Shown here piece after piece: positions 43,476 to 45,059 of a stretch of DNA of 64,000 bases (position 1 is its first letter; each line of letters begins with the position of its first letter). The stretch is from Alphaproteobacteria bacterium (GTDB lineage Bacteria > Pseudomonadota > Alphaproteobacteria > CAAHEQ01 > UBA3637): assembly GCA_015062395.1 (NCBI GenBank), contig SUUS01000002.1, positions 35,028-99,027 on the forward strand. Reading direction: 5' to 3'. Position numbers and translations under genes: made by a program. The notes beneath the pieces were generated by a model. The model was not told the origin of the DNA. It made no database searches and was given only the letters and a program-made list of their open reading frames with translations.

Positions 43476-45059
43476 ATGTCAAAACAACTTAATATGAAAA
43501 AAATTTCAATAATGGCTACAGCAGGATTGTTTGCTTTTGCTGTGTCTATGGCAAATGCACAACAGGTAGCTCCTGGTGATGTCAGTGGTGCATTGATGAC
43601 TGATGCAATGAATCAGACAGCTGGTAGCTTTGATACGATGAATTTAAACTATATTTCATCATTGGGAATGCAACAAAAAGCATGGAACGATCCGATGCAA
43701 CACATGGGGGAAGGTCAAAGTAAACCTGGTTATTCTCGGTATATTTGGTCTCCTGATGTCGTTTTGCCTGTTCGTTTACGCGAAGGAATGATGACATTGA
43801 TTAACTTGCCAACATGGGAATTGATTGAAAAAGTTCATATTGGCTCTCCAGAATCTTTTGGTGGTGAAATAGCAGCTCCGAACTCTTTGCTGTTATATGC
43901 AGATCCAACTTATTTAGGGGTTGATAGCAACTTAATTATTTTTGGTCGTTCTGGTAATCGTTATGTTTTCTATTTGCGCAGCGAAACATACAATACCGAT
44001 CGTATTACAAACGCAGTTGTTGATGTGACAGTTGGACCTAAATACACACCTGTAAGTGCTGGTGGTACTTCTGATATTTCAGGGGGGGCATCTTTAAACA
44101 TGGGGTCAATGGCATCTCGTTCATCGGGGGCTCCTGGTTGGGCTGGTTCAGGATCTTTAACTCCAGGGGGAAGTCAATCTCCTAATGTTGGTTTGAATAC
44201 GGCAACAAATGGACCTAAAGATTGGTTAAATTCAATACCAGTTGATCCTGAAAAATTCCGTTTTGATATTGATGTTTTTATTCCAAATCCAGAAGATATT
44301 GAATTGGCTCCAGAACGTGTTTGGCGTGATGAAATCTTTACTTACATTGACTTTGGTAAAAAAGCCTTAACAATGACACAGCGTCCTATTGTTAATTTGA
44401 TTGTTCAAGATTCAGAAGTGCCTGTTGGCTCAAGAACAAAGGGACCTCACAGCCGTTTGTTGGTTGTAGAAGGTGTTGGTGATATGGTTTTGCGCAACGG
44501 TCAACGAATTGTTTGCTTAAAAATGCGTCGCGATCCAGCAATGGGATTAGAAAATGTTGATTATTCTTGGTCGGATGCAAATTCATGGCATGCACCACAA
44601 CCATCTAATCAGGCAACAACGGATGTAGATATGCCAATGGATATGGGGATGGAAAATCCATATGCAGTTGATGGAATGGCACCTTTGCCTGAAGGCGTAC
44701 GTGGTTCTGCTGCAGCACAACAGGGGATTGTTGATGTGATGTCGGGAATGCCTTATACAAATCCAGTAAATACGTCTGTTAAGATGCCAGAACCCGTTGT
44801 TGATAACATTGCAATAGAGTTGGCGCAGGGAACAGATATAGCATCTTTGGAAGCAACTTGGGAAAATATTCGTGCGAAAAATCAAAAGTTGTTGGGTGGA
44901 TATAATCCTTATTTCTCGGTAGATACACTTGCTGAAGGGGGCGTTCCAGAATTGTTCCGTTTACGTGTTGGACCAGTCAAAGATGTTTCAACAGGTGATG
45001 ATATTTGTACTAAATTATCGAAAAAAGGGATTTCCTGTTCTGTAATCAGAACGCAATAG
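43476..45059 (+). CDS. virB9: VirB9/CagX-like outer-membrane core protein with C-terminal SPOR domain
   Basis: Signal peptide. N-domain ...SNLIIFGRSGNRYVFYLRSE fits the VirB9 N-terminal fold pattern. Low-complexity Gly/Ser linker. The final ~80 aa, ...LFRLRVGPVKDVSTGDDICTKLSKKGISCSVIR, resembles the FtsN SPOR domain ...RVVIGPVKGKENADSTLNRLKMAGHTNCIRL. Confidence 0.6.
   Translation: MSKQLNMKKISIMATAGLFAFAVSMANAQQVAPGDVSGALMTDAMNQTAGSFDTMNLNYISSLGMQQKAWNDPMQHMGEGQSKPGYSRYIWSPDVVLPVRLREGMMTLINLPTWELIEKVHIGSPESFGGEIAAPNSLLLYADPTYLGVDSNLIIFGRSGNRYVFYLRSETYNTDRITNAVVDVTVGPKYTPVSAGGTSDISGGASLNMGSMASRSSGAPGWAGSGSLTPGGSQSPNVGLNTATNGPKDWLNSIPVDPEKFRFDIDVFIPNPEDIELAPERVWRDEIFTYIDFGKKALTMTQRPIVNLIVQDSEVPVGSRTKGPHSRLLVVEGVGDMVLRNGQRIVCLKMRRDPAMGLENVDYSWSDANSWHAPQPSNQATTDVDMPMDMGMENPYAVDGMAPLPEGVRGSAAAQQGIVDVMSGMPYTNPVNTSVKMPEPVVDNIAIELAQGTDIASLEATWENIRAKNQKLLGGYNPYFSVDTLAEGGVPELFRLRVGPVKDVSTGDDICTKLSKKGISCSVIRTQ

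Follow-up and report, generated by a model that had tools for sequence, protein, structure and literature searches.

The window analysed here is a stretch of 64,000 nucleotides (nt) from an uncultured alphaproteobacterium (assembly GCA_015062395.1, contig SUUS01000002.1, positions 35,028 to 99,027 of the forward strand), with a guanine-plus-cytosine (GC) content of about 35%. At 43476..45059 on the + strand it carries a single open reading frame (ORF) of 527 amino acids (aa) plus stop. The product of this gene is VirB9, a subunit of the outer-membrane core complex, and belongs to a type IV secretion system (T4SS) encoded on the chromosome of a low-GC, gut-type uncultured alphaproteobacterium; the last ~85 aa of the protein were confirmed as a SPOR-family domain by homology and fold. 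The SPOR-like domain is proposed, with moderate confidence, to act as a multivalent peptidoglycan tether or positioning device with altered specificity or altered affinity per site.

The SPOR assignment was made because homologs of the window protein matched the family, because profile matches led transitively to bona fide SPOR proteins, and because the predicted fold matched solved SPOR structures. The hidden Markov model (HMM) of Pfam SPOR (PF05036) matched the window copy over aa 455-525 (E 0.0027), but its score of 18.4 bits falls just short of the gathering score, 21. Among 21 diverse homologs scanned, 19 matched PF05036 at E <= 0.01 (best E 1.1e-6), a divergent copy (L081) reached 22.2 bits, above the gathering score, and a precomputed PF05036 assignment was present in about one third of the top 120 homologs. 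The SPOR match anticipated in the preliminary description was thus found in the window copy and in most homologs, but the window copy itself stayed under the gathering score. A search of 1.84 billion representative proteins with a profile built from the C-terminal 90 aa gave 708 matches. From the matches beyond the clearest family members, 41 were scanned, four of which also matched CagX; Pfam SPOR was found in 40 of these 41 (best E 5.6e-34), and most of the 40 carry it two or three times. The nearest non-VirB9 relatives are ordinary multi-SPOR cell-envelope proteins.

When the C-terminal profile was compared with the sequences of the PDB, the weak top match was the SPOR domain of CwlC (E 0.22), and a strong multi-SPOR relative (P0147) had no match to the PDB by sequence profile. 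A fold search was needed, since sequence alone failed to link the C-terminal domain to solved SPOR structures. AlphaFold2 (AF2) prediction from the alignment of the C-terminal domain gave a beta-alpha-beta-beta-alpha-beta topology with a predicted local distance difference test (pLDDT) score of 84.8, and the same topology was obtained for this domain in the full-length model (pLDDT 67-87). The top Foldseek matches of the domain model were the SPOR domains of CwlC, RlpA (template modelling scores 0.65/0.74) and DedD, in agreement with the ribonucleoprotein-like fold that had been expected for this region.

The N-terminal part of the protein had been described as VirB9/CagX-like, and the HMM search bore this out. 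Pfam CagX/VirB9 (PF03524) matched aa 88-349 with E 1.5e-12 and a score of 48.2 bits, which exceeds the gathering score (34.2); profile positions 5-196 were stretched over these residues, and the same model matched all 21 homologs scanned. The NCBIfam VirB9 equivalog model TIGR02781 scored 33.2 bits against a cut-off of 217.7. The window protein therefore belongs to the broad VirB9 family, as a divergent member, and is no equivalog of the classical P-type VirB9. Its size, earlier given as nearly twice the normal one, was ~1.8 times that of a usual VirB9.

In RlpA, denuded glycan lies along the open beta-sheet face of the SPOR domain; the sole highly conserved side chain on this face is a Gln of beta1 (Q270 in RlpA, Q251 in FtsN, Q351 in DamX), the amide of which donates hydrogen bonds to the lactyl carboxylate of N-acetylmuramic acid (MurNAc) and to the N-acetyl group of N-acetylglucosamine, while F274 stacks on MurNAc and a basic patch holds the MurNAc lactyl carboxylate (PMC6895207). 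For FtsN, a preprint reports that the published Q251E mutant localised less to septa and bound denuded glycan less well (bioRxiv 10.1101/2024.05.13.594014). The residues of the binding face were counted in the present study after all domains had been aligned to the family profile. The position of the beta1 Gln was occupied by Glu in all 79 genome copies of VirB9-SPOR (E448 in the window copy), and by Asp (ISIDLG, YMVDLG, YEVDLG) or Glu in four distant VirB9-linked copies. At the same position, the nearest non-VirB9 SPOR domains (175 aligned) had Gln in 133, Glu in 22 and Asn in 10 cases. An acidic residue at the Gln position is a hallmark of all VirB9-linked copies seen. HMM position 12, which follows beta1 and corresponds to RlpA F274, was H, N, S, D, G or A in the VirB9-SPOR family and Phe or Tyr in 124 nearest non-VirB9 SPOR domains.

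The two arginines of an RxR pair (R495/R497) were invariant in the VirB9-SPOR family. In 258 related non-VirB9 SPOR domains the corresponding positions were R in 184 and 146, respectively, with Gln in 85 at the second. R495 was set opposite FtsN R285 by hhalign. The pair is a probable counterpart of the RlpA basic patch for the MurNAc lactyl carboxylate. Conservation of the face was expressed as per-column entropy over 77 distinct sequences, outward residues being assigned from strand alternation. On the beta-sheet face E448, S481, D483, R495, R497 and V523 were invariant and Y479 and R525 nearly so, and the helix surfaces varied. The sheet face thus appears as the most conserved part of the SPOR-like domain, probably under strong selection and with a chemistry unlike that of a textbook SPOR domain; because it is the most conserved part, a working binding site is predicted there. 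Despite the changed residues, the domain is not degenerating.

The string LFRLRVGPVKDVSTGDDICTKLSKKGISCSVIR, which is present at aa 493-525 (nt 44952-45050), had been quoted as an FtsN-type signature including the paired cysteines. C511 in helix alpha2 and C521 just before beta4 were invariant in the family, and beta1 was without Cys. In FtsN, the Cys pair C252-C312 joins beta1 to the alpha2-beta4 loop (PMC6895207). A pair of the C511/C521 type was found in all 258 related alphaproteobacterial SPOR domains, so that the comparison with FtsN did not hold; the two cysteines are a trait of an alphaproteobacterial SPOR subfamily and do not correspond to the FtsN disulfide. They could plausibly form a stabilising periplasmic disulfide.

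A homolog search gave 1285 matches, and the best 120 of the 1285 were full-length (52-100% identity, 499-617 aa). The fusion, which had been implied to be unique, turned out to be a large conserved family with the same architecture in at least 120 protein clusters. With one genome scanned per species, 123 loci encoding VirB9-SPOR came to light, and 80 of the 123 were used for locus comparison. Almost all of the 80 were labelled as uncultured Alphaproteobacteria, with gut sources including human (Hadza and others), yak, sheep, goat, deer, rabbit and horse. The SPOR domain was intact in 79 of the 80, the exception being a truncated ORF with an ambiguous base. In the great majority of these loci, VirB8 (220-260 aa) was encoded upstream and VirB10 (2100-2660 aa) downstream. 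Three contigs with VirB9-SPOR and giant VirB10 (L009, L011 and L012) were deposited as 'uncultured Lactobacillales bacterium' and 'Holdemanella biformis'; these names are probably due to mis-binning of metagenome-assembled genomes or to mislabelling.

In distant loci, VirB9-SPOR adjoined a VirB10 of ordinary size (about 530-733 aa). The distant fusion L081 (GCA_016735385.1) had a VirB9 of 463 aa beside a VirB10 of 733 aa, and the VirB10 adjoining the distant fusion L083 had 625 aa. When 72,556 plasmids were searched by tblastn, 20 had a VirB9 match, and in only 2 of the 20 did the match run through the SPOR-like end. These two were Sphingosinicella sp. BN140058 plasmid p1 (WP_129392748.1, 430 aa; locus L084, 11905-13197) and a plasmid of Erythrobacter aureus YH-07 (WP_115418090.1, 432 aa; locus L085, 8911-10209). 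Both copies of these Sphingomonadales megaplasmids lay in VirB8-B9-B10-B11/VirD4 clusters adjoining a DNA topoisomerase gene. Upstream of its cluster, the Erythrobacter plasmid has annotated VirB2 and VirB4; the annotation of the Sphingosinicella plasmid includes a MobA/MobL relaxase gene. The plasmid tails matched the family profile (E 1e-8 and 9e-7) and had Asp at the Gln position, the motif VRLRVGPF and the cysteine pair in the form C..M...G.SC. The VirB9-SPOR module is old, independent of the giant VirB10, and present in both chromosomal and plasmid (conjugation-type) systems. That the SPOR domain had co-adapted with the giant VirB10 was considered but rejected, as the fusion also stands beside VirB10 proteins of ordinary size.

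Structures of the pKM101, R388 and Xanthomonas type show a core complex with ~14 copies of VirB9, the C-terminal domain of which is located directly below the outer membrane. In the favoured mechanism, the linker that precedes the SPOR-like domain (77 aa here, up to ~167 aa in relatives) would span the distance to the peptidoglycan layer, and a ring of ~14 SPOR-like domains would bind peptidoglycan multivalently. Binding to the wall would anchor and position the channel, and might select the site of its installation in the sacculus. The altered face, in which Gln is replaced by Glu/Asp, the aromatic residue is lost and the RxR pair is kept, would result in a changed specificity, or in a lower affinity per domain that could be offset by avidity. 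Because the chemistry of the binding face is altered, changed recognition of peptidoglycan is favoured here over FtsN-like recognition of denuded glycan. Several observations weigh against such a tether. The canonical Gln is replaced by Glu/Asp, the same change that lowers denuded-glycan binding in FtsN, and the aromatic equivalent to RlpA F274 is absent from the family. The window copy lies just under the Pfam SPOR gathering score (18.4 vs 21 bits), and the two plasmid copies had no Pfam SPOR match at all. The full-length AF2 model (pLDDT 38.5) is too poor to place the SPOR domain relative to the VirB9 ring, and the copy number and geometry of the core complex would have to be as in the other systems from which they are taken.

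Other explanations of the SPOR-like end were weighed against this peptidoglycan tether. According to the preliminary description, the domain is a canonical SPOR module that binds denuded glycan, targets the T4SS to septa and new poles or to sites of lytic transglycosylase action, and makes VirB1 unnecessary. The homology and fold of the domain, the retained basic RxR patch, and the absence of any gene like that of VirB1 or a soluble lytic transglycosylase (SLT) among the window ORFs of at least 120 aa agree with this, but we consider it unlikely. Binding to denuded glycan is made weaker as a proposal by the change of Gln to Glu/Asp in 79 of 79 genome copies and in all four distant ones, which in FtsN cuts septal localisation and denuded-glycan binding; a carboxylate side chain would repel the lactyl carboxylate that is bound by the Gln amide of RlpA, and the family lacks the aromatic residue for stacking on MurNAc. 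The suggested replacement of VirB1 fared no better, as a SPOR domain has no lytic activity and a binding domain cannot stand in for a hydrolase. VirB1 may moreover lie elsewhere in the genome, since VirB2-6 and VirD4 are likewise encoded outside the window and the T4SS is split. It is possible, although doubtful, that the VirB9-linked SPOR domains form a distinct, ancient acidic clade that reads another cue of the wall and so tells the T4SS where to be built. A candidate cue would be N-deacetylated (amine-bearing) glycan or some other positively charged feature of the sacculus. If true, SPOR domains would have acquired a ligand specificity new for the family, and effector-type and conjugative T4SSs alike would carry their own device for spatial addressing.

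The SPOR fold might also have been re-purposed for contacts between proteins within the machine and no longer bind peptidoglycan, either as an extra peripheral ring or by docking the periplasmic region of VirB10 or another periplasmic component; the N0 domain of Xanthomonas VirB7 is a comparison for such a module. Two canonical determinants of glycan binding are lost, the invariant face of mixed charge (E448, D483, R495, R497) fits a co-evolving protein partner as well as it fits a ligand, and a short motif is conserved within the variable linker. However, the fusion occurs beside giant (2100-2660 aa) and ordinary VirB10 alike and is thus untied to the expansion of VirB10, and a long linker of variable length (73-167 aa) suits reaching a distant layer better than a fixed contact within the complex. 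The nearest relatives are multi-SPOR envelope proteins, and 22 of their domains also have Glu. A role in protein contacts is considered rather improbable. That the long ORF is an artefact, created by an assembly chimera or by read-through of virB9 into a separate downstream SPOR gene, has nothing but the unusual length in its favour and is exceedingly improbable. Of 80 independent species genomes from the gut of humans, ruminants, rabbits and horses, 79 share the architecture, which also recurs in the protein clusters of 52-100% identity described above and on two closed plasmids from cultured strains; neither a stop codon nor a change of frame lies between the domains. An artefactual fusion was excluded by these conservation data.

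Comparison with known proteins and systems placed the window protein as follows. Like VirB9, TrbG and CagX (PF03524), it has a signal peptide and a CagX match in two parts, and its gene lies between virB8 and virB10/virB11; unlike them, it is ~1.8 times longer and has an N-terminal extension of 60 aa, a Gly/Ser insertion, and a linker with a SPOR-type tail. The CagX of H. pylori is reported to be enlarged as well, by species-specific regions that are not SPOR (PMC13417560). With the SPOR domains of FtsN, DamX, DedD, RlpA and CwlC, the window domain shares the fold, detectable homology and basic beta3 residues, RlpA and CwlC being the best-matching named structures, and a disordered linker followed by a terminal domain is the usual layout of SPOR proteins (PMC6895207). 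It differs from them by Glu/Asp in place of Gln, by having no Phe/Tyr after beta1 and by a Cys pair between alpha2 and beta4, and it is carried by a subunit of a secretion channel and not by a division or cell-wall protein.

The closest functional analogy is PilQ, the AMIN domains of which bind peptidoglycan and bring the type IVa pilus machine to the peptidoglycan of septa and poles (PMC5285504, PMC10653833). In both cases, an outer-membrane channel subunit is joined through linkers to modules of a peptidoglycan-binding type; however, the folds (AMIN and SPOR) and the channels (secretin and VirB9) are unrelated, and the modules stand at the N-terminus of PilQ but at the C-terminus of the window protein. 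With respect to gene order, the window resembles the rvh T4SS. The rvh order of Rickettsiales consists of a duplicated VirB8 flanking a small lipoprotein, followed by B9-B10-B11-D4, separate from B2-B6. The window has the same succession of a B8-like gene, lipoprotein, B8, B9, B10 and B11, which is chromosomal and apart from virB2-B6 in a low-GC alphaproteobacterium, but it lacks virD4 after virB11 and its VirB10 is gigantic. To our knowledge, the RvhB9 proteins of Rickettsiales carry no SPOR domain. Other peptidoglycan-binding modules on envelope-spanning machines are the OmpA-like domains in components of Dot/Icm and of the type VI secretion system.

The start of the VirB9-SPOR gene was set at the ATG at 43476, to which the N-termini of the homologs aligned and at which most of them begin; AAGGAAAGAG, with the Shine-Dalgarno sequence AAGGA, is located ~11 nt upstream. 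An alternative in-frame ATG at 43437 would give a protein of 540 aa, and no Shine-Dalgarno sequence was found before it. A Sec signal peptide was read from the sequence at aa 1-28 (43476..43559), where MSKQLNMKKISIMATAGLFAFAVSMANA (ending in ...SMANA) is followed by QQ. It consists of a hydrophobic N-terminal stretch and then ANA before QQ, A28 and Q29 were conserved in the alignment of homologs, and cleavage is predicted after aa 28. The N-terminal extension (aa 29-87; 43560..43736; ~60 aa), with the invariant alignment columns SLGMQQKAWNDP..H.GEGQ.KPGYSRY, lies outside the Pfam VirB9 model. It was specific to the family and almost invariant among homologs of 52-100% identity, and it may be helical, a prediction of low confidence.

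The VirB9 N-terminal domain, a putative beta-sandwich (aa 88-192; 43737..44051), was delimited by the Pfam CagX match, with strands predicted at low confidence in aa 96-169. It is followed by a Gly/Ser-rich inter-domain linker (aa 193-246; 44052..44213; 13 G and 12 S among 54 residues), which is an insertion inside the CagX match, and by the VirB9 C-terminal domain, which would lie in the outer layer of the core complex (aa 247-365; 44214..44570), corresponds to the second half of CagX and has dense invariant columns from P258 to Y363. A Gly/Ser-rich linker had been placed directly before the SPOR domain; the Gly/Ser stretch is instead the one between the two VirB9 domains, and the real pre-SPOR linker comprises aa 366-442 (44571..44801). 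This linker is rich in P, V, A and M, of low complexity and variable, with gappy alignment columns of variable length (columns 395-590) and pLDDT <50; it has 77 aa here and 73-167 aa across 49 parsed homologs. The full-length AF2 model was poor outside the C-terminal domain (pLDDT 38.5 overall, <50 over aa 16-442). Within the hypervariable linker, a short motif was observed at aa ~400-424 (44673-44747), MAPLPEGV..S..A..GIVDVM, with the family form M.P.P..V..S..A..GI..VM, invariant P405, A414 and I418, and a predicted short helix. It could be a docking motif. The SPOR-family domain itself (aa 443-527; 44802..45056) is organized as beta1 (444-452), alpha1, beta2 (477-483), beta3 (493-501), alpha2 and beta4 (522-526), and its invariant residues are E448, W462, S481, D483, R495, R497, C511 and C521.

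The VirB9-SPOR gene is part of an operon that is tightly packed on the + strand, from five secreted ORFs through VirB11. The five ORFs (35410-41582; + strand; 233, 234, 679, 261 and 642 aa) are closely packed or overlapping and lie directly upstream of the VirB8-like gene. All five had signal-like N-termini and none had a Pfam match; they could be surface or pilus-associated components of the T4SS, or effectors. One of them (36840-38879) contains GGSGGLGNL(A/S)SAL tandem repeats. An antisense ORF of 213 aa at 37328-37969 (- strand), with PSPPEPPNALAKL repeats that mirror the Gly/Ser/Leu repeats of ORF 36840-38879, is almost certainly a non-coding shadow ORF.

Downstream of these ORFs, all on the + strand, the cluster contains a divergent VirB8-like paralog (41589..42227; 212 aa; Pfam VirB8 E 1e-4, its 22.7 bits being slightly short of the gathering score, 23.2), a small predicted lipoprotein (42376..42567; 63 aa; lipobox LMAC; no Pfam match), and VirB8 (42586..43347; 253 aa; Pfam VirB8 E 1.5e-12, 48.2 bits). 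The lipoprotein is a candidate VirB7-like protein by its size and its position between two virB8 genes. After virB9 follow a giant VirB10/TrbI (45159..52625; 2488 aa), assigned by Pfam matches with a TrbI domain at aa 2173-2366, and a VirB11-type ATPase (52646..53635; 329 aa; Pfam T2SSE E 3.5e-22). An ordinary VirB10 has ~400-550 aa. In the giant VirB10, the TrbI domain comes after ~2000 aa made up of beta-flower (PF21785/PF21784), DUF3659 and RHS-like repeats, with near-identical tandem units of ~90 aa around aa 1900-2150. This VirB10 is arguably stranger than the SPOR fusion. BipA follows virB11 on the opposite strand, with no virD4 after virB11. Homologs of VirB1/SLT, VirB2-6 and VirD4 were absent from the scanned window ORFs of at least 120 aa. 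Because VirB2-VirB6 and VirD4 also lie outside the window, the T4SS is split over the chromosome.

The other genes of the window were housekeeping genes, including those of a XerC/D-type recombinase, Lpt, SurA, KsgA, FolD, NDK and AcrB. At 28920-32156 (+ strand), a single ORF of 1078 aa combined an LptF/LptG permease (aa 7-355), LptD_N and an LptD barrel (aa 659-1011). The joining of an inner-membrane permease to an outer-membrane translocon would be topologically odd; the fusion could be genuine, or a stop codon or frameshift may have been missed. The region 1-6742 contained a remnant of a T7-like podophage or the end of a prophage, with a scaffold-like protein, a major capsid protein (PF19821, E 1e-70), a nozzle-like protein, a large terminase and a cell-wall hydrolase (PF07486).

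In line with the preliminary description, which knew of no described VirB9-SPOR fusion, no paper describing a SPOR-type module on VirB9 was found in the searchable literature; no paper on the T4SS of RF32 gut Alphaproteobacteria was found there either. Public annotation names these proteins just 'TrbG/VirB9 family', and the architecture is latent in the databases, as automatic Pfam tables list both PF05036 and PF03524 for some members. VirB9-SPOR does not amount to a system of a new kind. Envelope-spanning machines that carry peptidoglycan-binding modules were known already, as was the enlargement of VirB9 (CagX), and the real surprise is the acidic variant of the binding site.

The insertion of T4SSs through peptidoglycan and their positioning in it are only partly understood, and many systems lack lytic transglycosylases of the VirB1 type or can do without them. 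A VirB9 with its own module of a cell-wall-binding type offers a testable route for the anchoring or spatial targeting of a T4SS, and the precedent of the AMIN domains of PilQ shows that a wall-module strategy of this sort exists in another machine. The natural change of Gln to Glu/Asp mirrors the loss-of-binding mutation made in FtsN in the laboratory, so that the family is a natural experiment on the ligand specificity of SPOR domains. The plasmids of Sphingosinicella and Erythrobacter provide test systems in cultured strains. VirB9-SPOR has been kept in more than 100 species of gut Alphaproteobacteria and, among culturable Sphingomonadales, in megaplasmids of the conjugative type.

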